A stretch of 64,000 nt of DNA from Lytechinus pictus (lineage: Eukaryota), in the NCBI RefSeq assembly GCF_037042905.1, contig NC_087251.1, positions 44,518,001 to 44,582,000 on the forward strand, in the 5' to 3' direction. Shown here piece by piece: positions 16,201-63,699 of this stretch. A program made the translations under genes and the position numbers. The stretch's first letter is position 1. The number at the start of each line of letters is the position of its first letter. Below the pieces are notes generated by a model, which saw only the letters and a program-made list of their open reading frames with translations, ran no database searches and was not told the DNA's origin.

Positions 16201-19200
16201 CCCATGATTTAAAATCATATGACGCCTAGATAGATCCATGTTATTTGATTAGTTGTTTGATGTCAATCTTTCAGCCCATTTTACAATGATATTAGCATCC
16301 TCGCAATTTTCGATCCATACGATCTTGTCCATTGCACGCGCATGCCAAGACAGCCGGCAGTTCACGTAAAAACACTCATGTTTACAGTGCTTGTGTTTGT
16401 ATGTATGCGACAATCAATGTGCGCACTTTTGCATTCACATGTATAAAATGCCAAATGAAAGGATCTATTTTTAGGTGTCATGTAAAACAAATAATGAATG
16501 TTCAATTTCAATGAATTTCAAATAAAGAAAATTTGGTGAAAGATGAAATGAATGATCCCTTCCACCTGGCTACGCCTTGTTGAATGTATCATTTCATTTT
16601 TCACCTCATGAAGTATTCTGTCCATTGCACTCATGAACATTCATCGTTTGTACACTATAGTATCAGCCAGGAGAGATACAGCTAGCTTCTGGTCATCTAC
16701 AATGCTGAAGCGTTTCCTTGCATGTGACTGACTGTAGTTATACCCTCATGTACGCAGAAAAAATTATTGTACAGTGAAACCTGTCTATAATGGCAACTCA
16801 AGGGAAGCACAAATTGTGGCCTTTTTAGGCAGGTGGCTGCTATATACAGGTTGTTGTACACACATCATCTGCCTCCATTTGATTCGATTTTAGTGGTCAT
16901 TATTAGCAGGTGGCTGCTATAGACAGACTCTTATACACACAATCTGCCTCCGTGGGAATCAGTTATAGTGGTCACTATAGACAGGTGGCTGCTATAGACA
17001 GGTTCTTATACATACAATCTGCCTCCGTGGGAATCAGTTATAGTGGTCGCTATAGACAGGTGGTTCCTATAGACAGAGACTTCATGTATACACACAAGTG
17101 CCTCTCTGGGAATTTGTTTTAGTGGTTACTAAAGGCAAGCGGTTGCTACAGACAGGTGCCCACTAACACATATTTGACTGTATTTCTTTGTATAGTGTAT
17201 TTCTTCATTACTCTCTTTCTCTTCTCCTACAGATCATGCCAATCCATTGTGCTGCCATCAACCCCAACCCCAAGATCCTGGAGAAGCTTCTGAACACCGT
17301 GCCGGAGCTCAACCTTGCCGATACCAAAGGAAAGAAGATCATCCACTACGCTGCTGCCTGCACGGGGTCGGGACCGCTCGAACTCCTCATTCAGAGGTTC
17401 GTATCTCTGGTTCCATGACATTTGCTCCGGCGACAAGTGCTCCGCTGTAAATTCCACACACTTAATGGAATGACCAACTTCAACCTTGGATTTAACCCCC
17501 ATACCCTATCCGACACACTAAACCTAATATAAAACCCTATTGCAACCCTAACCCTACATCTTAGACGACATAAAGCCTGGAGCGGTTGTCTCTGGAGGAA
17601 ATGACGTGTCACTGTATATCTTCTGTACTGTAGATTATTTTGTGTTGAGATGACTAGGGAAGCATTTCATGAAACGAATTGGCAGTGTAGTTCATTGACA
17701 TCTGTTATAAGCTACTGAAATCCTTGCATCTGATTGGCTAAGAATGTATGAGTGAAAATCACTTGCAAGATGCTTCATGACACACTCCCCGGGTGGATCC
17801 TATTCAAATGATTAGTTCGGACTCTACTCTTGACCAGGCATTGCCTAATGTGTAGATTCAATTGATATAAGATATAGGCCTGAATTCACAGAGGTGGTTT
17901 TGAGAACCCACGGTTGAATCCATGGTGTATGCAATTTTCCTGTATAAATAATTTAGCGTATCGGGCGCGTGTATAAAAAATGTCCAATGCTGATGCGTGC
18001 TTTTGTCACAGTGCGCCAAATGGACGCCTATTCCATGGTTAGATACACTATTTTTTCATGAGTCCACTGTTTGGAGAGTGGACTCATTAATTGAAAACAG
18101 TGGACTCATGAATAAAATAGCGTGGATGACCATGGCAACAGGCATCAATTCGGCGCACTGTGACAAAAGCGCGCATCAGCATTTGAATTTTTTAATATAC
18201 GCACTAAAATAAGCCTAATTTATACAGGAAATCTGCATAAACCATTGACTCAACCGTGGGTTTTCAAAACCACCTTTGTGAATTCGGGCCTGTAATGACT
18301 TGTTTGTGGTGACTGGTTATTATTGCCTATGATTGGGAATGGCTTTGAAGCAAATAACAGGAACCGCACTACAATCCCATAAGATAAAAGATGCACATAC
18401 TTTTGGGCAGGCTTTCACATAATAAACCCACCCTTGATAGCTTTGTAACAGTCCATATGCCTGTTACATGAAGTCACATTTGTCTTCTTTCAGTTTGATT
18501 CATGAGCAAACATGTTGAGTATTTTTTTTTTCATTCTCATCAAAGCCTTTTATAAGACAAATAGATGAATTTGCACTTTACAAAATCCTGTGCCCAGTAA
18601 CGTAAAGCTTAGCGATCAGTCTTTGGTCTGATTTCTAGGTTTGATTGTACTGGCCTCCTTTTTTTGGGGTCACAACACGGGAAGTAGTAGAAGTTGTATA
18701 GTGTCGTAGAAGGACTTGCAGGAGAAATTCCTGACATGGGACCGAGACGTGAACGCTCCTATGGTATTGATTATTGTGTGTGATCAATCATGAAAATTTA
18801 TCCCAAGGATCAATCACAACGCTGTATGTTACCGAGTTCTGGGCCCCATCTTACAAAGAGTTATGATCGATCCGATCAATCTCAAGTATATGGAAATCCA
18901 TCAATGTCATAATTTTTTCTTTAGGAAATTTGCTCGATGTCCTTTAAAAACAAAGAGAAGCATACCGTATATTGAATGTACATCATTTCTAGAAAATATT
19001 TTGAACAAACATGTATTTTTGTCTCACCTGCATAGCAGAGTGAGACTATAGGCGCCGCTTTTCCGACGGCAACGGCGGCGGCGTCAACACCAAATCTTAA
19101 CCTGAGGTTAAGTTTTTGAAATGACAGCATAACTTAGAAAGTATATGGACCTAGTTCATGAAACTTGGCCATAAGGTTAATCAAGTATTACTGAACATCC

Positions 19201-22200
19201 TGCCTGAGTTTCATGTCACATGACCAAGGTCAAAGGTCATTTAGGGTCAATGAACTTAGACCATGTTGCAGAGCTGCCAACCATTACGTTTTTGCCGTAA
19301 TCATTACGTTTTTTCATTCAAATTACGGCATTATGGTTTTTCTTTTCAAATTACGTTTTTTGACAATTTTGATAATGTGTGTACATAATTGTATGTATGT
19401 GGAGTGCGTGATGAGCCCGAGATGAGCCTGGTACTTGCGCGTGCATAGTCGCCTGCCGGCCGGTTTTCCAACGCACTTTAATAATTTGATAGCGTGCACG
19501 TACATATACGTTAGTTGAATATGCGAGCGGCATGCATGGTACGAATCGCGATGTATAGCGACTGGTAAATACGTCTGTAAGGATGATGATTATTATTCCA
19601 TTTGCAAAATTTTACAAAAATACTCATCATATATATTAAAGATTGAATCATCAAAAGATATTTTTCATATACTTTAAAATTAATTGTAGTGATAAAGAAA
19701 TGAAATTTTGAGGCTATTTTCTTGAATTGATTAATATCAATTCCCTTCGGATAACGGTACTGTCTGGTTAATTTTCATCAACTCGTATCAAACAAATACA
19801 ATGAATTCGGCTTTGAAAAGACCTGGAAAGCTCTTCATTGTCCCCTGAAGTAATAATTCTGGGTGATATTCAACATTTATTGATAGTTTCACATGATTTA
19901 TACTAGAGAGATGTCCTTCTGCCTTTTGAATTCATTAAAAAAGTCGGCACTTTAGCATTCAGTTTAGCAGGAATGGGAAGATTTCTTCCCTGGTTCTGGC
20001 GGCCTAGATGTCTGCTCTATAGTGCTGTCACTGCTGGGGATGATTGAGTGTGCGTGCAGTGTGATTGAGGCTGAGCTGTGCACATCGTGAAGTGATTTAC
20101 GATGGGACTTTTGTGGAATGATTTCAACTTCTTAATCTTATCTATAGATCTATTTGAATTTTAGATTAGATTGATTTATGAATAATTTTTCTATATTTGT
20201 GGAATGTTACATGTACACTTCCATTTTATGACACTTTAATTTTAAAGGGTACTGTTTGGCAAAAACAATGTTACTTGGGAAGAGAAGTCTGAATCGATGG
20301 CAACTTTTTTTTTTTTTTTCTCTTAGTCTACAATTTGGTAGTTTTGTCAGGAAACTCAACATAAAACAATGAATTATTTTAGAAGTGGAAAGGAAGCCCC
20401 AGAAAAATGGAGCCCTAAAAATGTTCACCAGAACTGATTTTGGTGCCCCTGAAAGATTTTTTTCTCGACAGATCTTCACTTTGATAAGTGCCGGAGTAGG
20501 TTGCACTACAAAATGAAAGGCCTAGCTACTTGTCATTTTTAGAAAAATTTGCCTAGGTGCCCATTTGACTAGAATAAAAGTGGCCTTCATGCCCTTTAGA
20601 ATGGCCTTGATACCCCTTGAAATTTTGGGGCATTCAAGGCCACTTTGCCGGTTGCCCCAAGCTGAAAGTGCCCATTTAAAAATGGCCTTGCCCCTCTCAA
20701 TTCTTAATTCAAGCCCTGCTACTGACTTAATTAAAGTTGGTAGATTATATCAAACGGCCCAAGACTAAGGGTCCAATTTGTAACACTCCGTTACTTAGCC
20801 CAGACTAGGCCTAGAGATTAACTTTTTTTAAATTGTTCACTGCATACATACTTTTTGCATTGGATGTTTGTCGCGTGTGGTTTTAAGGTTCGTTTTAACA
20901 CATTCCTTTTTTTTGTTGGAAATTCCTTTTTTTGGCCATAATGATTCCTTTTTTTGCTTGCACAAGGTTGGCAGCTCTGATGTTGGGGAATCAACATCAA
21001 AATCTTAACCTAAGGTTAAGTTTTTGAAATGTCATCATAACTTAGAAAATATATGGACCTAGTTCATGAAACTTATACATAAGGTTAATCAAGTATCACT
21101 GAACATCCTGCATGAGTTTCACGTCACATGACCAAGGTCAAAGGTCATTTAGGGTCAATGAACTTTGGCCAAATTGGGGGTATCTGTTGAATTACCATCA
21201 TAACTTTGAAAGTTTATGGATCTGATTCATGAAACTTGGACATAATAGTAATAAAGTATTACTGAACATCCTGTGCAAGTTTCAGGTCACATGATCAAGG
21301 TCAAAGGTCATTTAGGGTCAATGAACTTTGGCCAAATTGGGGTATTTGTTGAATTACAGCCATAAATTTGAAAGTGTGTTGGTCTAGTTCATAAAACTTG
21401 GACATAAGAGTAATCAGGTATCACTGAACATCCTGTGCGAGTTTCAGGTCACATGATCAAGGTCAAAGGTCATGTAAGGTCAAAGAACTTTGGCCACGTT
21501 GCTGGTACATGTATTTGTTGAATTGCCATCATATCTCTTTAAGTGTATTGGTCTAGTTCATAAAACGTGGAAATAAGAGTAACCAAGTATCACTGAACAT
21601 CTTGTGCGAGTCATAGTAGTTTTCAAAATCAGCACTGCTGCGTGATGCAGGTGAGACGGCCAGAGGCATTCCACTTGTTTAGATGTTGACGTTGCTGGCT
21701 TTCCATAGTTGCGATTGATTGGATAAATCGTAACTCTTTGTAAGACGGGGCTCAGGATTGGATTGGATTGGGTATTCATGTGTGTTCTTAACCTCCAGGT
21801 CAGCGTTTGCAGACGACACAGATAACCAAGGGAACACACCGCTCATGGTAGCCGCTTCTCTCAACAGGACACAGAACATTGAGGTCCTGGTGAAGAAACT
21901 CAAATCAGGTGAGAGTCCCTTCGAGAGATTTGGGATTGGGTTATGTAGAAGAAATCATGTTTGCATAGGCTCTGAGTGAACTCTTAGTAACCAAGTAAAT
22001 AGTAATTTTTTTTTTTTAAAGAGTAGATATTATTGTGTACAGATATATGTATAATAATAAAAATAGCTGGATTTATAAAGCGCTTCTTGTCTGAGGATTC
22101 AAAGCGCTGCTACTATTACCCCGGCTTTAGCTCGAGCTACCATCACCGGCGCTCAGTGCATGCAAGTATAGATATGGTCTGATTTTTTTCTTCTCCATTT

Positions 22201-36600: not shown

Positions 36601-39600
36601 GTTATGTTATGTTATGTGATGTGATGATACGTTAAATTATGTTATGTTACATTACTTTATGTTACATTTAAGTTAAATTGTGTTTTATTACATTACATAT
36701 CATTGTGTCATGTTATGTCATTCTGTTATGTTTCATTGAATAGTTTTCTGTCATTTTATTCTGTGACAGCGTGGTGATCTTCCTGCTCCAGCGGGGGGCC
36801 GACATCTCGGCGACCGTCACCCGCCTCGAACGCCTCAAAGACGAAGAGGTGGAGAAAGCCAGGAAGAAGAAAGAAGAAGAGGAGAAGACGAAGGAGCTTT
36901 TCTGGGAGTGGAGGCCCCTGCGGGAGAAGACGGGCAGGAAGGCCATGCCGACCGTTGCGGAGACCCTGTTCAGGAGGGTGGTGAAGAACGGGTGGCAGGG
37001 AATCCTCTTCCTGCTCATGGACAGACTGGAGAAGTTCAAAGTACCTTACATCACACCCATCAAGGTAAACCAACAGCCATCCGTGCAAATAAATCCGTTC
37101 CACAACATTTGTTCTGGCAACAGTTGGTCCACTATAAATTCCACACACTAATCGAATGACCAACTTCAACCCTTGATTTTATACTCTACCCTACCCTAAC
37201 CATAAACCTATCATAAAACCCTATTGCAATCATTACCCGAACCCTACATCGAGGAGCAAGCCAGGAGCAATTGTTGCAGGAGTAAATGTTACCATTAAAT
37301 GTAGTAAAGCCAAAGTGATGTAGTTGCAGCAATCAATAATTCAATGAAAAAGTCTTTTAGATAAAGGTTACTTCGTGCATTTCATAATGCTTACACTCGA
37401 GTAGCCCCCTCATTATGATGTCAGTCATTTGCATTAATCTTGAGAGATTGATTAAAGTGTATGCAACGCCATGCATTAATCACAGTGCTTTTTGTTTGCA
37501 AAGTAATTACAGACCTCATTTTAAATCTTCAGTATATCTTGGATCTCACTCTCTGTTCGTTGTGAAATCAATTTTTTGTTCATTGAATGAGTTGAACGAT
37601 CTTCTCTGTTGCTTATATGATTGGAGGCAGTTGTTGAGGAGCATAGGTTTCGCATGGCTTAGATGCTAATCTCAAAATCTAGAGGTTGATGGTCTAGCTG
37701 CTAAGCAACAAATAAATTGAAATGAATCAAACAGTCTTCTCTGTGTCTTGTTTGATTGTAGGCTGCTATTGAGGAGCACAGATATCAGATGGCTCTGAAT
37801 CTAGTCTCCAAGTCCAGAGGTCACAAGGTCGATGGTGTCGCTGCGAAGCAACAGAACCTTCTACACATCCTGGCCTTACAGCCTGCTGATCAGCTTTCTA
37901 ACAAGGTAAAGAATAGTCACAAAGTCTTTTTAGTGAAAAAAATTCATTTCTGACTGCCCGAATAACATGCATAAGTAGAGTTGTAGTAGTTCAGTTAATC
38001 TGTTGAATACTGAATTCTGTCATTCCAATAGACTTTGTACAGGTATCACCTGGTTCCAACAGGCAACGGGTTAATATGTCTCCAGACATTGAACCACATG
38101 CTAATGGGTGAAAATCTCTGACCATAAATGAAAAAAAAAATCGCTCGAGACAAAAATATTCATCAGTCTCTGCTGATTTTCCCTATTGTAATCTGACCTA
38201 CTTTTATGGTGGATGTATCTGGAATTCGAAATGAAGAACAAAATGAAATTTTGAATTCTTGACAATACGCTTTATGCTGAGGATATTGAGTATGGCCCAA
38301 TTTGACAAATAGAACATTTCCCTTCTTTGAATACTCTCAATCATTGTATATCCTGCTTTTTTATTGATTGCTAAATGTAATTTAATTCAATTTTCTTTGT
38401 TACCCAGGTTGCTGAGAAATTACTTTCAAAGGGAGTAAGCCTCACTCATGACCAGTTCAAATGTACGCCGCTAACTTATGCCGTCCTTTCGGAAAACATA
38501 GGGCTTGCAAAGTTCTTGTGGGGTAAGTGGCTTCAAAAATTAATATATGCTGTACCATCCAACCTACGTACTTTAGGGAACACCTACTTAGAAGATACTT
38601 TTATTTTCGAAAGGTTAGCTGTATTTTTATGTTCACTAACATCATGACTAATGGGTAACAAACAAACTAAACAACAAAATAGCATCTTATGAGTAGCATC
38701 TTATGACAAAGTATAGACAAGGTATTTGAAAAAAGAAGACAATTTACAAGAGAGAAGTGGCTACACATTTACATGACTTGTATAGGATAGATAAACTGCA
38801 TTTTTTTGTGGAAAGAATTAACTGACTTGGTCTTAGTTACATCTTTAGGATGTGAAAGTGTAAATTTATGACATTTTTTTTTCATGTTTGCTTGTAGGTC
38901 ATATGAAGCAGCAGGGTGGCAAGCAGGCATTGACCAGTACTGACGTGAAGGGACGAAGCCTCTTGGCCACAGCTTTCTGGAGGAGGGAATACTTTGACAC
39001 AAATCTAGTCAGGTGAATTATCATTCTCGTGCAATATCATAATACAATGTGGGTGTTGCAAGAAAATAATTGCAATCAATTGCAGTTTTCTGTTGCAATT
39101 TTACAATTGATAGATCAAGTTAAGCTGCTGCAAATGCGCTTACACTCTTTTTTTGCCTGAAGCAGATCAACGACCGATTGCAAAGTGACATGATTGATAT
39201 AAAATATATTTGCCTTTGACTGCAAGTTTCTTGTTTACCACTCTATGGTGTATCTGAAAACCTATTAACCTAGTCTTACCACCATGCAATCCTTCAAAGC
39301 TAACAGTGAATAGATACTCATCACATTGTGCAAAGTGATACTCTAGTTACAAAAATCTCTTCCTTCGCCCTTCCACGGGAATGATAACTTGTCAATTATA
39401 ATCTGTGACCTTTGAACATTGTTCTTCCATGCATATAGCTGGCTGATGGAGGTTGGAGCCTCCCTCAACGTTGCATTCCCTGTTCCCCTGTGGGAGACCG
39501 AGGGGAGTGGTGCAGAGACCATCCCGGCCGACAAACTCGAGGAGTGGTTCCACCACCGTGAAGACCACCCCGTGGGCTACCTCACACCCCTCCTTGCTGC

Positions 39601-42600
39601 TCTCAGGGTCGCCAGCTTCGACCGTGTGAAGTTCCTCCTGACCAAAGGGGCGGACCCTAACTTACCGGCCAAGGACATGCTAACCCCACTCATGTGTGCT
39701 GTCAGGAAGGTGAGACAATCTTGACAAGGGTATCAAGGATATCAAGTTTCACATGTTGAATTAATCATCAGTTCTCTTTTTTTCATTCTGTTTAACATTA
39801 CATTTATGTTAAAATTAATAAATTTGTATCATTTGGTAGCTGCTGGAGAAAAATAATTTTGCTGAAGATTTATTATGTTGATAATATTGTATTTATCTAA
39901 ATCATGCATGTACATTTGTTTCATTTTTGTTCATGTTGTGTAAGGAAATATAGTATTTGATGATACTTTTTGTTATACTATGTTATACTTAATGGTCGAA
40001 AGATCTGAAATAAATATTTTTATTATTGTTGTTGTTATTATTTTCATTATTATGAATATATTTTTGTCTCTCACATTCAGAATAATCTCAAACTTGTGAA
40101 GCTTCTTCTGAACTATGACTATGACCCAGCAAAAGACAGCAATGCAGACTCATCATCTGCGAAAACTGCCAACACTACTTTTAATTCGTTGGGTTCTTTT
40201 GGAGTTAGAAAGTGGAAAGGTAAGTCTTGCTCTTAAACTTTCAGATATATTCTTTCACTTTATTGTTGTCAAATTGTGTTATGATGTTGCATGTTGATTG
40301 ACTTGTGGTAAAATGGAGAATTTTCTGCAATATTACCCATTGTGGAGTAACCTAGATGTAACAACAGAATATGAATTATTTAAATTTTAAAGTGATTGTT
40401 CGAAGTTTTTTTTTTTTTTCTTGCTTATACATTATTTAGACTGGTCCAAACTTGAAATAAAGGGGCAAAAGTTTTCCGGAGGCACTTTCCCATCAAGTTT
40501 CTGACACCCCCCCTTCCAATAAAAAAGAAAGCAAAAATGTCATCAAAATTCTATTTGGGGAGGGGCATTTCTCCCCCTGCCCCCCCCCCCCCCTCCATGT
40601 GATCTATAAGACATTCTTTATTAATGATCATTCTCTTTCAGCTTTGCATTTGTTATGCCATAGAGAACCTCAAGTAGTTAATCAATGTGGGAAATGCCTC
40701 TTTATTGATATCCTGTATGCTTTATCACATTCTTTTACACCAGCTGGAGGTACCGGTCTCTTCAACGGAGATGATGCCGAGATGGACGAGGATGAGGAGG
40801 AGGAGGATGATGAAATCGATGAAGAGAACGAAGATGAAGAAAATGAAGATGAAGAGAACGAAGATGAAGAGAACGAAGATGAAGATGCAGAGATGGATGA
40901 GAATGGCGATGGAGAGAACGAGGAGGATGAGGAGGAGATGGACCACGATGGAAGCCAAGAGAACGGAGAAGTCTCGGAGGAGGATGACAAGGAAAAAGAC
41001 AAAAAGAAACCAGAAGAGAGTAAGGATATATCTAAAGTATTACCCAAAGAATATGTATGAACCTATTATAAGGGAATTGCCATCGTCATACTGCTTAATA
41101 TAAATGCAGAAATTAAGTACAGTACCAGTATCAGTTTGGTACTTTGTAAAATTTAAAGATGTTTACGGGTTGTAATAGTTTACTCTTGATTTGCACAATA
41201 CTTCATATTCGGAAATGTGATTATTTTTACCTATAGATACTACAATATGGGGATATATCAACCCCCAATTTTTTTTTTAGGAAAGCTACAGCATAGAGAT
41301 GGGGGAATAAAATATTGGTTAGGGATGACCTTTGTATAACCAGTTTCCTGGGACCCTGGTGGCAAGTTTGATTGGAGTAATGTGAATAATGTCTATGTTG
41401 TATAGCAATTTAAGGTGGATTTCTTGTAGGAAATGCATTGAAGTCTACTTTGTTTACATTATTGTTATGCATGTCGGTAATGTATCATGAACCTGATATC
41501 GCCTGTTCAGTCGAATTTCAATGTCTCATTCAGCCCTAGTTTTCTTGTTCAAACTTTTTCAAATCAGCAAGGGTGAGTTTTTGATGCTTTCACTACTCAC
41601 CAATCAATTTTGACGATATTGTTCTTCTTATCAGAGGAAAAACCTTTCATCAAGACGAGCAACGTCGACCTATCAGCGAGAGACTCTAGAGGGCGCAATG
41701 TCATCCATCACCTTATGTGTACTTGCGACTTTGGCACGTACCAGAATGAGGCCATGCTGAAGCTGTTCCACAGTTTAGGGGTTCCCCTGGACACCAAGGA
41801 TGGCGAGGGGAAGTCCCCACTGGACTATGCCTTGGAAGCTGGCTCACACATCATGGCTGAGCTGTTACAGAGGCTGCAGGGCATTAAGAAACCTCAAATG
41901 GTATGCTTGCAGATATTTGATAAATAGCTAAGGATGCTGCTTTTCAAGCCCCTTGAAATTTGCCAAGGATCCCTGTTTAAGACTTGTACCTTCACTCTAC
42001 TTTTAATTATTGTTCATTCATTGATGACATGGATAATGTTATGTGATGTTTTGTGGAAATAAAAATAAACTTGAAACTTGATCAACTTATTTTGACAGAT
42101 TATACCGCTCCATTCTATCTATTATTCAGGCAAACGTACACATTGTTATGCCAGCCTTTTACCAAGTTGATTATATTACAAACAATCGCAATAAAATAAT
42201 CCACTGGCCTATATTTACAATTTTTCAGCTTATTTTTTCAAGTTAATATAAGATTACATGATTCTTTGACTCTGATGCTGCAATACAGTCATCTCCACTA
42301 ATCTGAGAATGCATTATGGATCTAAGATCACCTATGGTCAGGTATCACACATCAGTATTGCCACTCAGATATTTAACATTGTGTTCTAAAACAACCCTAC
42401 TGTAGTTTGTCAGCAGCAAATTTATTCATTCTCTCTGATGATCTGAGCTTGTCACACAGTTCTGAGATCACCCATAATCAAATATCACATCAATATTGTC
42501 ATTTAGATATTTAATATTTTGTTCTAAGAAACCCTACTGTATTCTATCAACAGCAACTACCAACCTTAAAGAAGAGTACATGGACAGACGGTTATTCTTG

Positions 42601-45600: not shown

Positions 45601-48600
45601 ATTAATATGATTTTTGGATTATCATTTGAAACTGCTGTTTTAATATGATTCAACAACCAATCCTTGTCAAGGTATCCCTGGTAGATACCATTTGTAGCAA
45701 TGTTATCATGAATATTATGTAAATGAAGGAATGAATATTATGTAAATATACCATGAATGCTAAGTATATTTACCCTTGAATACTATGTATATTTACTATG
45801 AATACTATGTATATTACCATGAATAATAAGAATATTTACATGTGCAATTCTTACATTTTATTTCATAATCAGCATTACAGGAAAAAAGTATCAGTACGTG
45901 TTTATTTACCATGAGTACTAAGTATATTTACCATGGATACTAAGTGCAGTTACCATGAGATGTAAACATGAATGCCATTGGGCTCAAATGTGAGTAGACG
46001 AAATCATGCCCAATAATTATGAATTCTGTTTTTTTTTTTAAGACTTCACCAAGTATGTTGAAACATGCGATGAAGCAGTGTGGAGCATCAGAGAAGTTCC
46101 TTCCCTTTGGCCACTTACAAAGAGACGTCTTGGACTTAGCATCCAAAAAACTACAAGAAATCCAGTGAGTGGGGCTAGATACAATATTATGATAATGATT
46201 CATGTGATAAATCATGCAATAGATAAATGGTTGTATAACAGAAAAGGAAATTTTATGTTAAGGCAACCCTCCTGAATTGTGCATGGAATCATGTGAATCC
46301 TGATATTTTATTCCATAATCAGCATTGCAAAAAAAAAATGCCAGCAATGCTTCCTTTATCTGTCTGTTGTACAAAATGGTAGCCATAATCCTTTTCTTAA
46401 CAAGATGGTAAATATCATTTACATTAATGCAATTATTGCTGCAACGAAGCCATTTTAGTAATCCCAGAGAACATTTTCTGAACCAAGTTCCTGCTGTACG
46501 TGATCGTTTGGGTAAACTACCCATGCTTGTAATAGAGAATGGGCAAAAATTGGCATGAAAATTTAGATCAAGTATTAAACCTTTCCTTTGAGAAATTATG
46601 TTTCATTTTAATTTCTGTTGCAGTTCTTTTCCTTTTCGAATGGAAAGTTTCAGATTCAGATATTGTTGAACTTCTTAAAGGTTTTATTGAATGAGAGGAG
46701 AGAATTTTCTATCTTGTCTGTAATATTCAATCTTGGTGTTTAATGCATTTCTCCTGTTTTTCAAATCGTCAGGGACAACATCAAGAAGTTGGAGAAGGCT
46801 ACAACTATGAATCAAAGAATTGAAATATACGACAAGGTAAGTAACACCCTTTCCCCAGAAATAAGAATAAGTGGACTATACAGTTGTAGAATGTGAGCCG
46901 AAAGTTTCATTCCAATATGATTGTTGATGTATGAAGCATGATGCAAACAATCAGATGACATAATTGTCATTGCTGGTATTTAATGATTTGTTTTTTTAAT
47001 TGTTACCATGAAATTATCATTATCATGAAACTAACATCAATTTGTTTCATTTTAGAATTAGATGACTTAATTTATTTCAGATTTCTTTATGCTGGTAAAC
47101 AATTATTCTTTACTTCTGCTTCTTTGCTGATGTCGATTTTATCATGAAATTATCATTATGAAGACAACATCATCATGAAACTAAATCTTAATTTGTTTTA
47201 CCTTTCATTTCCTGTCAGATGGCTTCTTTGAATTCAGAGTTCTATATACTGGTTCCCATTAATTCCTTATTTTTGTTGTTATTTGTAGTCCTCTTTATAA
47301 TTAAATTGTCATGAAATTAACATCATGAAATAAAAATCATCACGTAATTAACATCACTTTCCATTCAGATGGCCTCACTGAGTCCTGATTTCTACATGCT
47401 GGTTCCCAACAATACCTGTATATACATTTGTTTTAAAATTGTCAACCATGAAATAAGCATCATGAAATAAACGTCATCAAGAAACTAACATAAATTTGGT
47501 TCATTTTCCATTCAGATGGCTTCGCTGAGTTCCTGATTTCTACATGCTGGTACCCAACAATACCTGTATATATATTTGTTTTAAAATTGTCAATCATGAA
47601 ATTAGCAAAATGAAACAAACGTAATCAAGAAACTAACCTAGATTTGGTTCATTTTTTCCATTCAGATGGCTTCGCTGAGTTCCAGATTTCTACATGCTTA
47701 TTCCCAACAATACCTGTATATACATTTGTTTTAAAATTGTCAGTCATGAAATTAGCATCATGAAATAAACGTCATCAAGAAACTAACATAAATTTGGTTC
47801 ATTGTTTCCATTCAGATGGCTTTGCCGAGTTCCGATTTCTACATGCTGGTACCCAACAATACCTGTATATATATATATTTTTTTTTTAATTGTTAATCAT
47901 GAAATAAGCATCATGAAATAAACGTCATCAAGAAACTAACATAAATTTTGTTCATTTTCCATTCAGATGGCCTCACTGAGTTCCAGATTTCTACATGCTG
48001 GTACCCAACAATACCTGTATATATATATTTTTTAAAATTGTTAATCATGAAATTAGCAAAATTAAATAAACGTCATCAAGAAACTAACATAAATTTTGTT
48101 CATTTTCCATTCAGATGGCCTCACTGAGTTCCAGATTTCTACATGCTGGTACCCAACAATACCTGTATATATATATTTTTTAAAATTGTTAATCATGAAA
48201 TTAGCAAAATTAAATAAACGTCATCAAGAAACTAACCTAGATTTGGTTCATTTTCCATTCAGATGGCCTCACTGAGTTCCAGATTTCTACATGCTGGTAC
48301 CCAACAATACCTGTATATATATATTTTTTAAAATTGTTAATCATGAAATTAGCAAAATTAAATAAACGTCATCAAGAAACTAACATAAATTTTGTTCATT
48401 TTCCATTCAGATGGCCTCACTGAGTTCCAGATTTCTACATGCTGGTACCCAACAATACCTGTATATATATATTTTTTAAAATTGTTAATCATGAAATTAG
48501 CAAAATGAAATAAACGTCATCAAGAAACTAACATAAATTTGGTTCATTTTCCATTCAGATGGCTTCACTGAGTTCTGATTTCTACATGCTGGTACCCAAC

Positions 48601-51600
48601 AATACCTGTATATACAGTATATATTTTTTTTAATTGTTAATCATGAAATTAGCAAAATGAAATAAACGTCATCAAGAAACTAACATAAATTTGGTTCATT
48701 TTCCATTCAGATGGCTTCGCTGAGTTCCAGATTTCTACATGCTGGTACCCAACAATACCTGTATATATATATATTTTTTTTAATTGTAATCATGAAATTA
48801 GCAAAATGAAATAAACGTCATCAAGAAACTAACTTAGATTTGGTTCATTTTTTCCATTCAGATGGCTGCACTGAGCTCCGAATTCTACATGTTGGTGCCC
48901 AACGATTCCTTCACTCATCAGAGCATGGAGCCCATCAATGATGCAGACACTGTAGAAACCTTGATGCAGCATCTAGCCGATATGGCTGACCTGGAGCTGA
49001 CGGGGAACCTGATGCTTGGTGCACAGCATAGGGTGGCAGGTAAGACTGAGTATTCCTGCTTGAAATTGCAGTCACAGCTAAGGATGAGAAGAGTTAGGTC
49101 TAGGAATGATCACGACTCGGTATGATGATGATGATGATAATGATACTACTACTACTACTACTATTATTATTCTTATTATCATTATTATAAATTGTTACTA
49201 CTGCTGGAATCATGAAGCACTTTTTCTAGAGGATTATAAAGCGCAACTATTGCTACCATGGCTTTAGCTCAAGCTAGCTTCCACTTTGGTATTCTTGATT
49301 ATATCCTACATAGATCAAATCATGTTTTGGTGATTGATTTTAAATAGCATCATGTGACCAAACATATTCTCACTATTTTGTGATGATGTTGAAAATGAAA
49401 TGCCCACTGAAGAAAAATTGCTATTCCGTGACAATGATGGAATAGTGCACTATTCCATCATTGTCGTCACAGATCATGACGGCGCAAGCACTAATACACG
49501 TTCCGCGCGCTGAGCGCGTGGCTTCCGGAAAAGTAGGTCAGTCAGCGCAGCAGGTTATCGTGGTTCAGATTAAAAAAGGATGAACTACGAGTACAGGAAC
49601 CTTGATTATCAAGATCTATTGCTCTAACTTATGAAAGTAGGATATAAAACAAATATACCTGGCCTTTATTTCGAAAGTATAGAGGGAATTATTCATCCTC
49701 GGTTGTACTGGCAAAATTACCATTTTCCCGCTATACTTACTCAAAGCCTGGTATATTTGTATACTATATATATCTTTCTGTCTGCCTTTCTCTCTTGCAA
49801 TATATTGTGGGATATCTTTGTTATGAAAGTGGAGGTGCCGTGGCCGAGTGGTCTAAGGCGCCTGGCTATACATAGAAAGTCCGGGGTTCGATCCCCGGCC
49901 GCCGCACCTATGCCCGTGAGCAAAGCATTTAATGTACAATGCTCTTTTATCCTGCTTTCAAATACATGGAAATGCTATATGCATTATTGGTAACTTGGTG
50001 TGCACTTGTTTAAAAAGAAAAATAATAATAATAATTTTGTTTTTGGTTGTTGCAGATATGAACCCTGTGGATTACATCTATCGATGCTTGGACTGTGAGA
50101 TCGTCCCACTGGAAGAGGACGATGTCATGGCTCAACTTATTCTTCAACAGATTCACAAGACAAGTGAGTATCCCTCATTTCGTTTCTTCTTACGGAACTG
50201 GGGGCCGTTTCATAAAGTTGTTAGTAAGTTAAGAGCGACTGGTGATCCTTTCTTACTCGCAAAACCATCGCTAATGAATATACCATTTATCAAAAGAAAG
50301 GATCACCAGTCGTTCTTAAAGTCGCTCTTAACTTACGAACAGCTTTATGAAACACCCACCAGGACTCGGTCTCTTCTTTGAATGTGATGATTATGACCTA
50401 AAATAATTCTATGTCAATAAACTTGTGTGGTGAACAGATATTCAAGAATAACAAACAAAGGATCTTAAGTCTAATCCATAGTTCAAATTCCCTCCTGGGA
50501 TCGCTGAATTTTTATATATTTTTATGTTTCAATAATGTAACATCTTAACATTTCAACATTGTAATATTTTAATATTAAATTTTTTTTTAATGTGTTTAAT
50601 ATATTGAATATGTGGAACATGTTGAATCAGGTGAATATCTAAATGCTTGAATATTTTGTGGTATTTCAGAGGATAGACAAAAGGTGAATGTACAGAGGAT
50701 CTACAGAGTGAGGAGGAAAGGAGAAGAAGATACATTAGCATCATGTAACCTTGACAACCACAAATTGCTGTGGCATGGGACTAAGCCTTTCAACATTCTC
50801 AGTATTCTCAGGCGAGGCCTAATCATGACGCCTATTGGAGTACCCGTCACAGGAATGCGATATGGATCTGTAAGCAAAACTGAGCATCTTATATTTTACA
50901 GTCTTTTTGCTCTTTAGTTTTCAGTGTAACTACGTTGATACTAAAGCAAATGATGAAAATAGCATTGCACTTACATGCCAATGGGCACATGGTTCTATGT
51001 AGAAAATCAATAGATTCCCCTTCTAAGTCTATGTCTTTATGTCTGGCTGTCTTTTCTTTTTTTCGGATCAACGTCATTTAAATTCTACTTCTTCCTTGTT
51101 GGGCGTGTTGTGGTCTAGTGGTTCTGACTCTCGCCTTTCAAACAGAGGGTTGTGGGTTCGAATCCTAGTCGTGGCGTGTTTTCCTTAAGCAAGAAATTCA
51201 TCCACACTGTGCTGCACTCAACCCAGGTGAGGTAAATGGGTACCGGCAGGAAATAATTCCTCAAAAAGCTATGTGCACCTGAATCGGTAGCCTAGCTTAG
51301 CCGGTTGATAATAGTAGCAGGGCCCGCTGGGAGAACAGTTTTTGGAACTGAAGTGGTTACCCGGGGTAAATATACCGTTATTATTATGTATCTCTTCATG
51401 TGGTATGAATGCTTTAGATTTGTGCAATTTATTTGTGGACTCTGTTTGGAAGTTGTAGCATGTGCATTTAGTGTCACATACACTTAGGAATTATAGGTAA
51501 CTTTGCTTAATTCAAATATATCTGGTGGGTGTTTCATGAAGCTGTTCGTAAGATACGAAGGACTTTACGCACGACTGGTGATCCTTTCTTGTGCTATGTG

Positions 51601-58712: not shown

Positions 58713-59239
58713 CTATGTTAGGATATTGGAGTCTTCATCAAGTAGTTGCTGCTCTGCAAATAATTCTCCTTCAGTCGGTGAGGGGGTTGTCGACTCCCCG
58801 GTTGGCTTGGAGGGTGGTGGTGATGGCAGAGAGGTTGATGGTGATGATGGCAACGACGATATCGATGGTGATGATGGGGATGACTCTGGTGATGGTAGTG
58901 ATGATGATGGCGACGACGATGATGATGAAGATGGCAAAGGTGATGTCGGTTGAGATGATAGAGTCTCTGATGACGGTAGTTGAGATGGTAGTGACGATGA
59001 TGGCGATGATGGTGATGAAGATGGTGATGGGGGCCAAGTTTCCTGGGTTGAAGAGTGCGATGATGAAGATGGATGTATCTCTGAGGATTCGGCGGATGGC
59101 TCTGATGGGGATGAAGATTCTGAGGTCGTTCCCGAGAACCACCTTGGTGTTACTGAGTATTTCACAGCCTCCCAAAAAGACTTTCCTGTCTCTTCTTTCA
59201 GGTTAGGGTCTGTGATAATATTGAAGGTCACATCCTTTC
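58713..59239 (-). CDS. Gene 2 exon 4, terminal (KDVTFNII...FWEAVKYSVTPRWF + Ser/Pro tail)
   Basis: tttcag acceptor on - strand; stop ends at 58713. Confidence 0.85.
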
Positions 59240-62200
59240 CTGAAATGAAAGCAACAAAATAGTTTGCTAGATATGATACCAACAATGTATTTAAATGTGT
59301 AAATGCAATTGCATACCATAAAAGATGCCATATTAAAGAGCTATTTTTGTACTTGCCTGTAAATTTCAAATAGAAGATGTAGAAGGGAAACAACCGCGTA
59401 GCCAGGATTTCATTTTGGAGGGGGCGGTAAATGCACGCAAAGCGTGCCAACACAGAGCGCGCGAAGCGTGCTCCCTAGGGGTTGGGTGCAGGGAGGGGGA
59501 GTTTCCCCCTCCCACGCGAAGCTATTGGTGTTTCATAAATTAAAATGAAAAGGAGCCGTCTGTCTTGTCTCTAGTACCTATATCAGCTTCAATTCAGTTG
59601 ACTATATTGTGATTTTGAACCTTGTTTTCAAAAGTGATTGTGAACGCACCAAAAAAGGAATACAATGGAGGAAATTGAAATAATAACCCCGCGTAAAGCA
59701 CGAAAGCTAAAGCGTTTTATCAATTTTTTTGCCATGAAAAGGGTCCAGAGAAAAGGGTATTCTCAAAGTTACATTGAATACTTCCCTTGGAAAGATCAGA
59801 TTTGATTACAAACAATTTAGCGACAGTTCATATCTTTATTTCGCAAAACAGAGGAGAAGAAGTGTATATGCCGGGAGGAAGATATTCCTCCCCGCGCAGA
59901 GCAATGAAACTCTGAAATTTCAAAGGGCGGGCGTTTCATCAAATGCAGATATCTCTAATACCCCATCGGCTCTAATTCAAATGATTTTCTAAGATTATTG
60001 AACTTCATTACAAGGAAAATAGTGCGCAAAAAGTTGAAACTTCTGTGATTTATTGAAATTATATAAAAAAAGGATGCCTAATTTCTTTGACCTATCCTGA
60101 AGCGCTTCAGTTTGAATGATAAAGAAACTTAAGTGTCATTCAAAATTTCAAACTGAGGGCGCAAAACAGGACAGGAGATGAATGTGCAGGGAAATGACAT
60201 GAAGTTTAATAGAATTTGATACAAAATATTGTACTTTTTATTTAATACGACACAAATTTTATACCTTCCTCTTTTTAAATTAGGAACCTGTTTGCCCCAA
60301 AATTATGGTTGTGTAGTAATGAGCTGAAAAGCGGGAAAAGTTTACTTTATGGAGGTGACGGCAGAAATTGATTTTACCAGATTTTACCCACCCGGAGCCG
60401 ACCCGACCAGAAGTTGCGCGATCAATAAAAAAAAAGATAACTTCATATACTTCGGCCTAATCTTACTCTAATTCCATGCCCTAATGTGTACATTTGAACT
60501 TTAACTGGCAAGAAACACATATAGCTGAGGTGGAAAAACAGGGTTAGAGAAAGGGTGGGGGAAACAATGGAGAACTTCAATATTGTCATTTAACCGCGGG
60601 CAGCGCGGAAGCAAAATTCATATATAAATTTAGAGCAAGAGTGAAGGAGTTTCTCTTTTGAGAAAAAAAATAAAGAATAAAAAAAACCCACAAAGCTACC
60701 TTTCTTCCCTTTCCTCCCTTCCCTTTTCCTTTTCTCCTCTCTATTTTCCCTTCTTTTTTTTCTTTTTGGGGACGTTTTGGGGGTGGGGGGCGACCGCCCC
60801 CACCGCCCAACCCCTGGCTTCGCGCCTGAAGGGAAAAGAAATGTTTCTTTCATTGCAATATCTTAAATGTATTCTTAAATGCAGTCCAGAAAAATATTTG
60901 AGTGATTCCACAATACATTAATACATTAATGGTCTACTTTTTAAGAATACAGAATGTATTGATATAATCTTCATTAGATGTAAACATATTTCATCAGAAT
61001 TTGTAACTAAATCTATAACCTTGATTCTGATTGGCTGCTGAGCCCTTACCATAATCATCACCATATTAATGCCAAAGTTGAGTTTTTATGGAACAGGATC
61101 CACGGGAAAACAGTGTGTGTGATTGGCTATGTTTACATCTAATTAAGATGGAAGTAACATTACAAACAGCCCTAAAAAATGCATACTTTTGGTAGGGCAT
61201 TGGTGTATCCCTTAGCCATCATGATGAGACGATTTCATCACACTTAACATGATGTGGTCGTGAGGACAAGTATCATTGGGGTACTATTATTGATAAGTTG
61301 TTTGCATCCTGACCAAGACTCTTTTTTTTTTACACAGACGTTGAAATAAGCAACAGTTCTCTGTATAAAAATTTGAAGATAAGCTGTTGTAAAAACACAA
61401 AATGTAGTAGTTGAGATGAAACTGTCTCATTTTTTTTCCAGGTATTCATATTCTATCACTTTGTGATAGAACATGTTCTCATCTAATGAAGATTGCATAC
61501 ACATTAACTAGTACTTCCCGAAAGACCCCCCCCCCCCCCCCCCGCACAAGGAATGAAGAAACGGTAATTTACCTAGTTTGGTTGCCTGTTTCACAACAGC
61601 CTGCGACTGGAGCACATCGGCAAAGAAAAGCGCTGCTGCGGCCTTGAGGTCATCATGCTTGAATACGGCTGTGATGAGACCCCTGGCTGCTTTCTGAGAC
61701 TCGGGATCGGACAGGATGAGAACCACCACTGCCTTGAGCGCGGCCGTGGTCTCGGGATCATGGATGGCGAGGAGCAGGACCTGTTTGATGGTCGAGGCCA
61801 GGAGCCGTCTGTTCTGTGGGTCCTCCAGAATGCTCGAGATGTAATCTGTTGTAGCTTTTCTGGTCTCAGGGCTGTTCAATACCTAAAATGGTGCATGGAT
61901 AAATTTTAACGAAATGATAGAAAGTGGCATATATAGCATGGCATCCAATAATTTTTTCCATGGCTTCCTAAAAGGAAAGTGGTGCCATGGGCAGGTGCAT
62001 ATTCAATCTGCATCACGGAAAATAAAGATGGCTATTTCTAACAAGTCTGATTCAATAAGATGAAAATCTGTAGTAATACTACAGTGAATTTTTAACCATC
62101 CATCAAAGAAACGAATTACCCTTTAGTCAAACTTTTGCAATAAGGTTGATGTCTTGTAAAGAGTAATACATCTTACATGTTTAAGAGGCTTCTCTCTCTA

Positions 62201-63578
62201 AGCCATATAGGCCTATATGTTATGGATTTCAAGCAAAAAATCTTAACTCATTATAATTATAATCTTTTATTGACATATTTATGTTAACAGCCCCTCCCTC
62301 TATCCCAGTCCTTTAACAAAATTTAATAAAATTGTGATGATTGAACTCTTGAATTATGTATAGCACAGCCAAGGCCAACAGTATACCTGCTTGATAAATT
62401 GCGCAGCTAGACGGTGCATGTTTTCATCATGTAGGAGTGTCTGAAGGAGAGACTTGGCAAACTCCTCTGCCTTCATGGCCACATGCTCATGCTCCAGAGA
62501 TCGTGAGGCTACTTGCGATACTTCCACAGCAACATTTTCTCTGATAGGATCCCGCAATAGGTACACCATCAGACCTGAAATGGAAAGAAAAAAATTACAT
62601 GGATTTCATTCAAATCACTGTCAAAGATTTTTCATGAGTCACAAGTAACATTGATTAATTCCTTCAGTATTTTCCAGCATATTTTATCATTTTCTGTTAG
62701 GGGCCTAGATCTATATGGATAATCCTGTTACATCAAAGGTGATTTTAAAAATCTAATTAATGCTCTCATTAATCTAGGCTACATCATCGAGATGAGACTG
62801 TTGAATTACGACTCAAAATTTATCAGAGTAAAACCCTATATTACTGTAAAACAAATAATGTTTGTCATGTCTCCGGACGTAGACTACATTTAACATTATC
62901 TAAACTTAGACCCCTAATCTCCATGATCTATTTACCTATGATGATGAAAACTCCTACTCCAATACGAACAGTCGAGTACCCGTGAAATCTGAGTGAGTTC
63001 TCCAGCTTCTTCAGCTTCTTCAGCTGGTGGAGGACAGATCTGTGGTCTTGGTCATGTTTCACTGGTTGGCCTGATGATGACTGCGTTGAGGCAGGATTAG
63101 ATGACAAGTATCTGGTGGAACTAAAATTCCAATGACAAACATTTGCCAATTTTACTTGAAGGAATTTCAATTGGAGATGTTGTTGCCTCCAAGTCCAAGA
63201 AGACAGTGGAATTGTTGAGAAACAGTTTTCTGACTTTAATGTTAGATGCTGTGATGAGGAATCATGAGGCCGCCTTGCCCTTGATGGTTGTTGAAAATGG
63301 GATAAAACATACGACGTTGTGAATCTAACACTAAACTCGGTCTCGGGAGTTCTCACACGGGAGCTGTGCAATGAATCAAACAGGATCCTTGGAGAGGAAT
63401 ACCCCGAACGCCAGGCGGGAGCGATGCCCAGGCCCGCGTTGCCTGACGTTAGTGATAATGAAGAGCTGACGGGAAAGCCATGGTTGCCAGAGGCTCTAAA
63501 GTTGATACTTTTTCGACAAAAAGAAATAACAAAACCATTTCTAAAATAACCAACAGATGAAAATACATTCATCTTCAT
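58713..63578 (-). CDS. Uncharacterised single-pass membrane protein (~555 aa), possibly mitochondrial; whole gene span, 4 coding exons
   Basis: Exons 63578-62936, 62574-62387, 61882-61573 and 59239-58713 have GT-AG boundaries and compatible phases (1668 nt). Hydrophobic segment IGVGVFIIIGLMVYLL spans exons 1/2, followed by amphipathic helices and a Ser/Pro tail. Confidence 0.85.
59391..60828. mobile_element. hAT-like non-autonomous element
   Basis: 8-bp TSD AAGGGAAA on both sides; imperfect TIR CAACCGCGTAGCCAGG / CCTGGCTTCGCGCCTG. Confidence 0.8.
61573..61882 (-). CDS. Gene 2 exon 3 (VLNSPETRKA...KQATKL)
   Basis: ttttag/gtaaat on - strand; GC-rich. Confidence 0.88.
62387..62574 (-). CDS. 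Gene 2 exon 2 (LMVYLLRDPIRENVA...AAQFIKQ)
   Basis: tttcag/gtatac on - strand. Confidence 0.87.
62936..63578 (-). CDS. Gene 2 exon 1 (MKMNVFSS...GVGVFIII)
   Basis: 216-aa ORF; donor G|gtaaat; start codon choice uncertain. Confidence 0.75.
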
Positions 63579-63699
63579 ATAACCAATTAACAGATCGTTT
63601 CAGCGAAAAAAGCGTCCAATACTACAATAATGGAGCAATAATCCAACAAGTTCAGTCCCCAGTCCATGAAATTCAGACTTCAGAACGAATGCATTCATT

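Follow-up and report, generated by a model that had tools for sequence, protein, structure and literature searches.

How an intron that repeats its own 3' splice site many times over is spliced, and whether the extra copies serve the gene, are the questions raised by a PARP locus in the window, the stretch of 64,000 nucleotides from Lytechinus pictus analyzed here. In our assessment, the array is probably an acceptor-side "mirage" minisatellite that is spliced, in the RNA examined, only to its last copy, the extra copies being likely tolerated debris.

The host gene and its exons

According to Pfam, the exons of the host gene encode ankyrin repeats, a WGR domain, a PARP regulatory domain, and a catalytic domain, arranged in the expected order, and 35 exon cores were located in the gene. 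The same order has been described for the ankyrin-type Clade 1 PARPs, such as C. elegans PME-5 and Dictyostelium ADPRT3 (PMC2964712, PMC4245714), and the domain order and database matches together suggest that the host gene belongs to this type. Homolog searches with the WGR exon gave matches; no matches were obtained with the PARP_reg exon or with an ankyrin-region exon as query. Two further proteins, repetitive and unrelated, were set aside.

The exon that follows the array, here called the true exon, matched the Pfam family PARP_reg (PF02877, E-value 1.6e-6) and aligned to approximately residues 732-781 of PARP1 in a PDB alignment to chain 9mi8_A, with a PARP1 numbering that assumes a 20-residue tag. 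This agrees with an earlier note on the sequence, which had placed the copied exon in the helical (regulatory) domain. Upstream, the joint from 46164 to 46773 was covered by 12 RNA reads and 2 contigs. The features of the region are listed below, where organism B denotes a related, more diverged organism.

46773..46836, + strand: upstream exon of 64 nt that ends in phase 0 and whose donor opens the array-bearing intron (RNA)
47008..47111, + strand: most decayed unit, acceptor 47062 (sequence comparison; organism B DNA contigs cover the region)
47158..47268, + strand: old unit, acceptor 47219, without GT at the unit end (sequence comparison; organism B contig 47070-47330)
47269..47417, + strand: old unit, acceptor 47369, a 49-nt pseudo-exon with open frame (sequence comparison, frame test)
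47418..48760, + strand: nine young units, acceptors 47516 to 48711 (TRF, unit alignment, frame test)
48761..48861, + strand: intron side of the acceptor in use, an ordinary array member as judged from its sequence (distances, private columns)
48862..49039, + strand: true exon of 178 nt, running from phase 0 to phase 1 and encoding part of the PARP regulatory/helical domain (Pfam, RNA depth, both junctions, PDB alignment)
50056..50165, + strand: downstream exon that starts in phase 1 (9 reads with loose ends behind 49039; open spliced frame)

Organization of the tandem array

The array was identified by TRF at 47354-48910 with a period of 148, 10.4 copies, 92% matches, and a score of 2450, which placed it far at the top of the 30 TRF rows in the 64-kb window. 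Unit mapping resolved 11 decoy copies of 147-152 bp each, which consist of the intron end followed by 49-50 exon bases. In the 5' to 3' direction, the first exon bases of the decoys are located at 47219, 47369, 47516, 47666, 47816, 47967, 48115, 48263, 48411, 48559, and 48711, followed by the true acceptor at 48862, with a spacing of 147-152 from acceptor to acceptor. The earlier note had given the same number, positions, and spacing of decoys. It had also described the true exon as the twelfth and last unit, and the true exon is indeed the last, although an extra decayed unit with its acceptor at 47062 (74% identity to the true unit on the intron side and 64% on the exon side) had been missed. 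Another candidate unit, at 46955, was dropped at about 50% identity.

The young units comprise, in this order, an AT-rich spacer, a branch-point-like motif, a pyrimidine tract, and AG, after which 49 or 50 bases derived from the exon and a GT follow. The AG was kept in 11 of 11 decoys. All three acceptor signals, previously ascribed to the typical unit, were present together in the nine young units, whereas the two older units have decayed. Rather than the smooth gradient of divergence toward the 5' side that had been proposed, we observed 2 age groups: three old units with 65-79% identity to the rest, and nine young units with 87-100% identity on the intron side. The young decoy acceptors differed from the true acceptor at 2-6 positions over about 80 intron bases. 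Hence, the claim that the decoys are nearly identical to the true acceptor held for the intron side, but not for the copied exon part, which had 8-10 mismatches of 49 to the true exon.

It could be argued that all or most of the copies in the array were created by mis-assembly, as the intron cores of 48115 and 48411 are identical and four units have an identical exon part. However, there were 10 distinct intron cores and 9 distinct exon parts among the 12 units, the old units were seen in independent DNA from organism B, and a decoy-type peptide in the public protein model XP_054757995.1 matched no unit of this assembly exactly, a hint of a different unit elsewhere. We consider an artefact extremely improbable. 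The repeat was found nowhere else in the same genome assembly, in a search that yields lower bounds.

Concerted evolution of the acceptor copies

The intron side of the working acceptor had a mean distance of 5.0% to the young decoys, as compared to 5.8% among the young decoys themselves. Sites private to the true unit numbered 1 of 80-81 on the intron side versus 7 of 49-50 on the exon side, an asymmetry with a Fisher p-value of 0.005, or 0.012 if the allelic site 48892 is left out. Phylogenies of the intron parts and of the exon parts contained no supported branch; only distances and private sites were used. By these measures, the intron side of the working acceptor is homogenised with the decoys and the coding side is not. 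The young units were 5-6% apart, the units at the 5' edge 21-35%, and the exon part at the 3' edge 17%, a pattern of concerted evolution inside the cluster that excludes its edges, as in mirages. The locus clearly illustrates a functional splice acceptor that evolves in concert with dead copies.

The two oldest units were present in the DNA contigs of organism B, which suggests that the duplication is older than the split from that organism. The array has persisted through this split, across which the exon divergence is about 7%. In organism B, the region of the old units was slightly less diverged, with 17 differences in 260 positions versus 40 in 358 for the neighboring intron (p = 0.066), a comparison that refers to the old units only; conservation above the surrounding intron would be expected of a poison-exon (AS-NMD) regulator. 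The contig of organism B that covers the true exon is 149 nt long and is uninformative as to the young units in this organism. Unequal crossing-over or slippage may keep the young units turning over. Such turnover would extend to the branch point, the pyrimidine tract, and the AG that are in actual use, and would halt at the coding sequence because of the array edge and purifying selection.

Acceptor choice in RNA

From the upstream donor, all 14 loose ends behind 46836 that were obtained in run X23 continued into the true exon, giving an agreement of 1.00, where a single read of the decoy type found in the window would have given about 0.98. The Logan contigs of runs X1 (depth 75) and X5 (depth 154), which drop rare forms, contained the same sole form, joined to 48862. 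On the acceptor side, all 25 loose ends listed before the true exon corresponded to the upstream exon (3 in X21, 6 in X22, and 16 in X23) and none was a decoy end, with rows listed only at 3 or more reads. The donor-side and acceptor-side reads of X23 come from one subsample and are non-independent. About 6% of each raw RNA run was read, and depth was blank at 48690-48790, including decoy 48711, where the repeat was skipped; this blank carries no evidence. Decoy junctions were not seen in the RNA runs examined, in which depth was low and NMD active.

Regular splicing is thus undisturbed for the major form, and since the examined reads joined only the genuine last copy, the array is likely a tolerated repeat of the mirage kind. 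The earlier note had named splicing to 48862 alone, even when NMD is blocked, together with a lack of copy-number effects on expression, as the outcome that would speak for a neutral repeat; all reads went to 48862 with NMD active, which provides half of that outcome. It had also proposed that copy number could tune PARP output, such that a minority of transcripts would use a decoy, acquire a premature stop, and be degraded by NMD, with more copies resulting in less PARP. The close similarity of the young decoys to the true acceptor on the intron side is in line with such leakage, as is the frame test, in which every read-on or add-on route led to a stop, and NMD would conceal the products; moreover, 0 decoy reads of 14 is compatible with decoy use of up to about 19%. 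Yet, no decoy junction appeared in the RNA examined even though the raw libraries were rRNA-depleted and not poly(A)-selected, and amphioxus mirages vary in copy number with no aberrant mRNA reported in the accessible parts of PMC3087553 and PMC3902484. Dosage control by leaky splicing is in our view unlikely.

For a tolerated mirage, the last acceptor would win through exon definition, as the earlier note had soundly inferred, because only this acceptor has a normal donor at exon distance, while the young decoys end in a GT without G at -1 and without G at +5. By contrast, 31 of 31 fully visible putative donors of the host gene carried G at -1 or +5, in a by-eye tally on which the weakness of the decoy donors rests and which is biased to the consensus, as 3 donors were RNA-confirmed and the others hand-picked. 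At least 10 near-identical upstream acceptors are passed over, and a first-AG scanning rule cannot therefore explain the choice. The locus has modest value as a natural experiment on how 3' splice sites are chosen, in a species amenable to minigene work in embryos. Masking of the decoys by RNA structure was rejected as an explanation: RNAplfold with three window sizes gave the true pyrimidine tract an accessibility of 0.07-0.11, no higher than the 0.01-0.38 of the decoys, with three of seven control acceptors set 1-2 bases off.

Reading frame of the decoy copies

In seven of the young units, a 1-nt insertion brings the exon-derived part to 50 nucleotides and shifts the frame; units 47816 and 48559 contain 49. 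Among the 10 units with a GT at the unit end, 7 were frameshifted and one had an internal stop, which argues against selection for frame. Addition of one decoy through its unit-end GT produced a premature stop in all 10, as anticipated in the earlier note, and rare decoy use would mostly give premature stops that are cleared by NMD. A 33-nt in-frame micro-exon, which had been suggested for two units, was open on paper in three. Tandem mutually exclusive exons are full-length, frame-preserved duplicates with good donors of their own, whereas the copies span 49-50 of 178 nt, are mostly frameshifted, and have a weak unit-end GT.

The earlier note missed that a 49-nt unit may replace the true exon in frame. 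Both 49 and 178 are 1 mod 3, and splicing of a 49-nt unit to the following exon in place of the true one leaves the frame open for 47369, 47816, and 48559. Such a swap would delete the NAD+-blocking helix of the PARP1 type, with a loss of 43 helical-domain residues, including positions matching E763, D766, and D770 of PARP1, and could yield a de-repressed PARP isoform. The lost part aligned to the PARP1 helix that bears these residues, and their mutation or deletion raises the DNA-independent activity of PARP1 (PMC5829251). Furthermore, the nr protein XP_054757995.1 carries a join of this type, agreeing with unit 48559 at 15 of 16 residues. However, this protein is a 257-amino acid model in which the WGR stretch is garbled and the catalytic domain is missing, an outcome to be expected when repeats mislead a gene predictor, as happened for lancelet PGBD5 (PMC3902484, PMC3087553), and it serves as an annotation warning that one public model uses a decoy. 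The poor unit-end GT and the frameshifts in 7 of 10 units also speak against the swap, zero reads supported it on the 46836 donor side in run X23 and the contigs, and autoinhibition has been demonstrated for human PARP1 rather than for the ankyrin-type family, with D766 not conserved here. We judge the swap very improbable. Equally far-fetched is a mirage co-opted as a PARP autoinhibition switch, in which a 49-nt unit would be swapped in by stage or DNA damage, the dose would follow the count of 49-nt units, and array turnover would keep rewriting the working acceptor of the gene. Importance would come only from the in-frame swap, if true.

The thin RNA depth, the persistence across the organism B split, the slightly lower divergence of the old-unit region there, and the one nr model with a decoy-type peptide in frame count against the debris view.

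Comparison with known repeats

Mirages have been described in amphioxus (lancelets), in the globin gene BflGb6 and also in Adh3, troponin C, and PGBD5 (PMC3087553, PMC3902484). The BflGb6 mirage has units of 150-160 bp with 81-100% identity and concerted evolution, and splicing was normal by RT-PCR (PMC3087553). Like BflGb6, the urchin array is a minisatellite made of an intron's 3' end together with the 5' portion of the following exon (PMC3087553): the repeat is tandem, the unit spans the intron-exon boundary with the authentic boundary, fixed by RNA, at the array edge, and the copies keep splice signals. In amphioxus mirages too, AG is kept in most units, and repeats were annotated as exons by gene predictors (PMC3087553, PMC3902484). 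The urchin array differs in its echinoderm host and its 11-12 copies, compared to 3-6 in BflGb6, and may differ in the homogenisation of the intron side, which breaks off abruptly at the exon border; for BflGb6, the identities are given per whole unit, at 81-93% relative to the authentic one (PMC3087553). The array is an ordinary example of this repeat class, outside the lancelets in which the class was named.

Two human cases are related. The 37-bp VNTR in intron 7 of F7, for which 50 constructs were tested, likewise has an edge unit that spans the exon border, and its identical pseudo-sites are functional yet silent, a choice unexplained by secondary structure (PMC1557585). It is located on the donor side, where the exon-adjoining site is the first copy, whereas the urchin array is on the acceptor side and the last copy is used. 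In CBS 844ins68, an intron/exon junction is also duplicated and the distal site used, with the upstream exon fragment removed along with the intron, but this is a lone 68-bp duplication and not an array (PMC2630376). No boundary-spanning repeat was found in the accessible part of PMC10078293, and none of the papers listed by our literature search dealt with mirages in echinoderms. Within the same PARP gene, two more single copies of acceptor edges were detected among the 70 edges scanned.

The repeat array and its host gene

A single plus-strand gene extends across positions ~3100 to 54700; its exons encode, in order, ankyrin, WGR, PARP regulatory and PARP catalytic domains. PME-5 and other ankyrin-type Clade 1 PARPs have this arrangement (PMC2964712, PMC4245714), and the gene is like them in its domain order. 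Its best protein match was XP_054757995.1 (P0012), labelled Lytechinus pictus, with 100% identity across 2 exons, and its 3' exons matched a single locus in the 812-Mb assembly. The elements around the array, all on the plus strand, were as follows.

46836: donor of the upstream exon
47062: acceptor of a decayed old unit
47219 and 47369: acceptors of 2 old units
47516 to 48711: acceptors of 9 young units
48862 to 49039: true exon, preceded by the working acceptor
50056 to 50165: next exon

The 11 decoy acceptors and the true acceptor at 48862 described in the earlier note were all recovered at their positions, and the decayed unit at 47062 was found in addition. Tandem Repeats Finder (TRF) reported a period of 148, 10.4 copies and 92% matches at 47354-48910. 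In each young unit, an AT-rich spacer leads into a branch-point-like motif and a pyrimidine tract, followed by AG and 49 to 50 bases derived from the exon start. Because a 14-bp sub-repeat lies inside the intron part of the unit (47309-47340 and 47896-47928), the minisatellite may have grown out of a shorter one. In the true unit, as in decoys 47666 and 48263, an extra AG follows the branch-point-like motif by a few bases (48830-48840) and the tract length is unlike that of most units, a common patch that suggests exchange among non-adjacent units.

Searches for homologous exon open reading frames gave 11 matches, 2 of them unrelated; in most of the 9 non-repetitive matches kept, an intron-like stretch stopped right before one shared residue. 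The position of the array-bearing intron would thus be old and not a creation of the array.

Acceptor choice in RNA

Both array flanks were examined in 3 raw rRNA-depleted runs (X21, X22 and X23) and several contig sets from organism A. Loose read ends before the true exon corresponded to the upstream exon in 3 (X21), 6 (X22) and 16 (X23) cases, with agreements of 0.99, 0.99 and 1, and the 9 loose ends listed at 49039 all corresponded to the next exon. From donor 46836, all 14 loose ends of X23 continued into the true exon (agreement 1), as did one contig each in X1 (depth 75) and X5 (depth 154). Therefore, the major transcript joins 48862. The junction check proposed in the earlier note thus came out for 48862 in every read, but at shallow depth and with NMD active in the samples.

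The counts draw on approximately 6% of each raw run, and the same X23 reads enter the donor-side and acceptor-side counts. RNA observations were listed at 3 or more reads, and contigs lose rare forms; the 0 of 14 decoy reads caps decoy use at <19%, no tighter. Decoys with true-type first codons are less distinguishable within 30 letters, but none of the changed letters or loose ends expected from their reads was listed at the true-exon flank. The one decoy that lies within this flank was passed over as repeat, and its own blank depth carries no information.

The decoy and true acceptors were nearly identical in themselves, and the difference lay in the downstream context. Downstream of the true acceptor lie 178 nt of exon and an RNA-confirmed donor, whereas the terminal GT of each decoy lacks G at -1 and at +5. 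All 31 putative host-gene donors differed from the decoy-end GT, as judged by eye in a biased selection that included 3 RNA-confirmed donors. Since the acceptors are alike while the downstream donors differ, exon definition is the likely mechanism of choice: acceptor 48862 would win as the only one whose exon ends in a normal donor. Masking of the decoys by RNA structure, compared as pyrimidine-tract accessibility in RNAplfold, failed as a reason for the choice.

Reading-frame consequences of decoy use

Outcomes were computed on the spliced sequence for the 10 units carrying the unit-end GT. As the earlier note had predicted, adding one decoy through this GT before the true exon disrupted the frame, with a stop in 10 of 10 units; read-on from a decoy into the spacer met a stop after 6 to 33 codons. 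A role of decoy use as an NMD rheostat seems unlikely. The 33-nt in-frame micro-exon suggested for 47816 and 48559 was open at both, but also at 47369, giving 3 units rather than 2.

These 3 units, of 49 nt, also kept the frame when replacing the 178-nt true exon, which would remove 43 residues aligned to a PARP1 stretch with E763/D766/D770. This numbering presumes a 20-residue tag and a given PARP1 length. The excerpted literature on human PARP1 describes these residues as blocking NAD+ (PMC5829251, PMC13022067). Use of a 49-nt unit in place of the true exon could also draw on P0012, a public model titled 'PARP3-like', in which 15 of 16 residues at a decoy-type join are as in unit 48559 and 13 as in the true exon. 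However, P0012 is short, garbled across the WGR exon and without a catalytic domain, and a frameshifting insertion was present in 7 of 10 units, an argument against selection for a coding role. We consider such a swap very unlikely, and read the join as an annotation artefact; P0012 probably represents a piece of the host gene in a different assembly, where a decoy was taken for the exon. The same kind of error is described for lancelet PGBD5 in the excerpted text of PMC3902484.

Evolution of the units

The 9 young decoys differed from one another by a mean of 5.8% (intron side) and 5.3% (exon side), whereas the true unit differed from them by 5.0% and 17.2%, respectively. Private columns of the true unit numbered 1 of 81 on the intron side and 7 of 50 on the exon side (Fisher p 0.005); by our own reading, 3 of the 7 exon sites are synonymous and 4 are not. 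As the true unit resembles the decoys in its intron part but not in its exon part, the branch point, tract and AG in use appear to turn over with the array, and the coding part does not. We infer an edge effect combined with purifying selection as the cause. One of the 7, the synonymous site 48892, had the decoy state, C, in every RNA read of the 3 runs and in organism B versus T in the assembly, this T being either an infrequent allele or a mistake of the assembly.

In organism B, a more diverged relative, 10 of 146 exon bases differed. Its DNA contigs span both oldest units (47056-47330), so the first duplications would predate the split. That the array is an artefact of assembly is extremely improbable. 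DNA of organism B (X9) also carried an insertion of ~70 nt at 47050-47056 resembling 46314-46341 of the preceding intron.

Comparison with known mirages and other repeats

The excerpted account of the amphioxus globin gene BflGb6 describes a "mirage" minisatellite of tandem copies of the intron 3' end and the 5' exon part, with units of 150 to 160 bp, 81% to 100% identity, 3 or 6 copies depending on haplotype, concerted evolution with the edges left out, and normal splicing (PMC3087553). PGBD5, Adh3 and troponin C are further mirage genes according to PMC3902484. The defining features tested here were tandem repetition, units that span the intron-exon border, retained splice signals, undisturbed splicing of the major form and concerted evolution; the array showed all of them, and we regard it as probably a tolerated mirage. 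Excerpts on human F7 (PMC1557585) and CBS 844ins68 (PMC2630376) describe analogues, donor-side in the former and single-copy in the latter.

Besides the array, 2 single acceptor-edge copies were found among the 70 host-gene exon edges scanned, and such duplications therefore look common here. One (37582-37659) is a diverged copy, at 76% over 79 nt, in which the acceptor edge of exon ~37763 recurs 180 bases upstream with ~28 exon bases; it has the form of a one-unit mirage within the host gene. The other (42357-42419; 83%, 63 nt) copies the intron end before exon ~42555, lies ~140 bases upstream and extends a few bases into the exon sequence.

Four more intronic minisatellites in the host gene (14204-14913, 16826-17157, 21033-21611 and 45703-45959; units of 89, 75, 162 and 22 to 23 bp) were checked for exon-edge copies, and none was found. 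A neighbouring minus-strand gene (58716-63600) has exons with a long Ser/Pro-rich frame and gave no Pfam matches above the cut-off in the frames scanned. Between the ankyrin blocks of the host gene, an acidic low-complexity coding stretch (40745-41030) contained repeats of 15, 30 and 45 nt.
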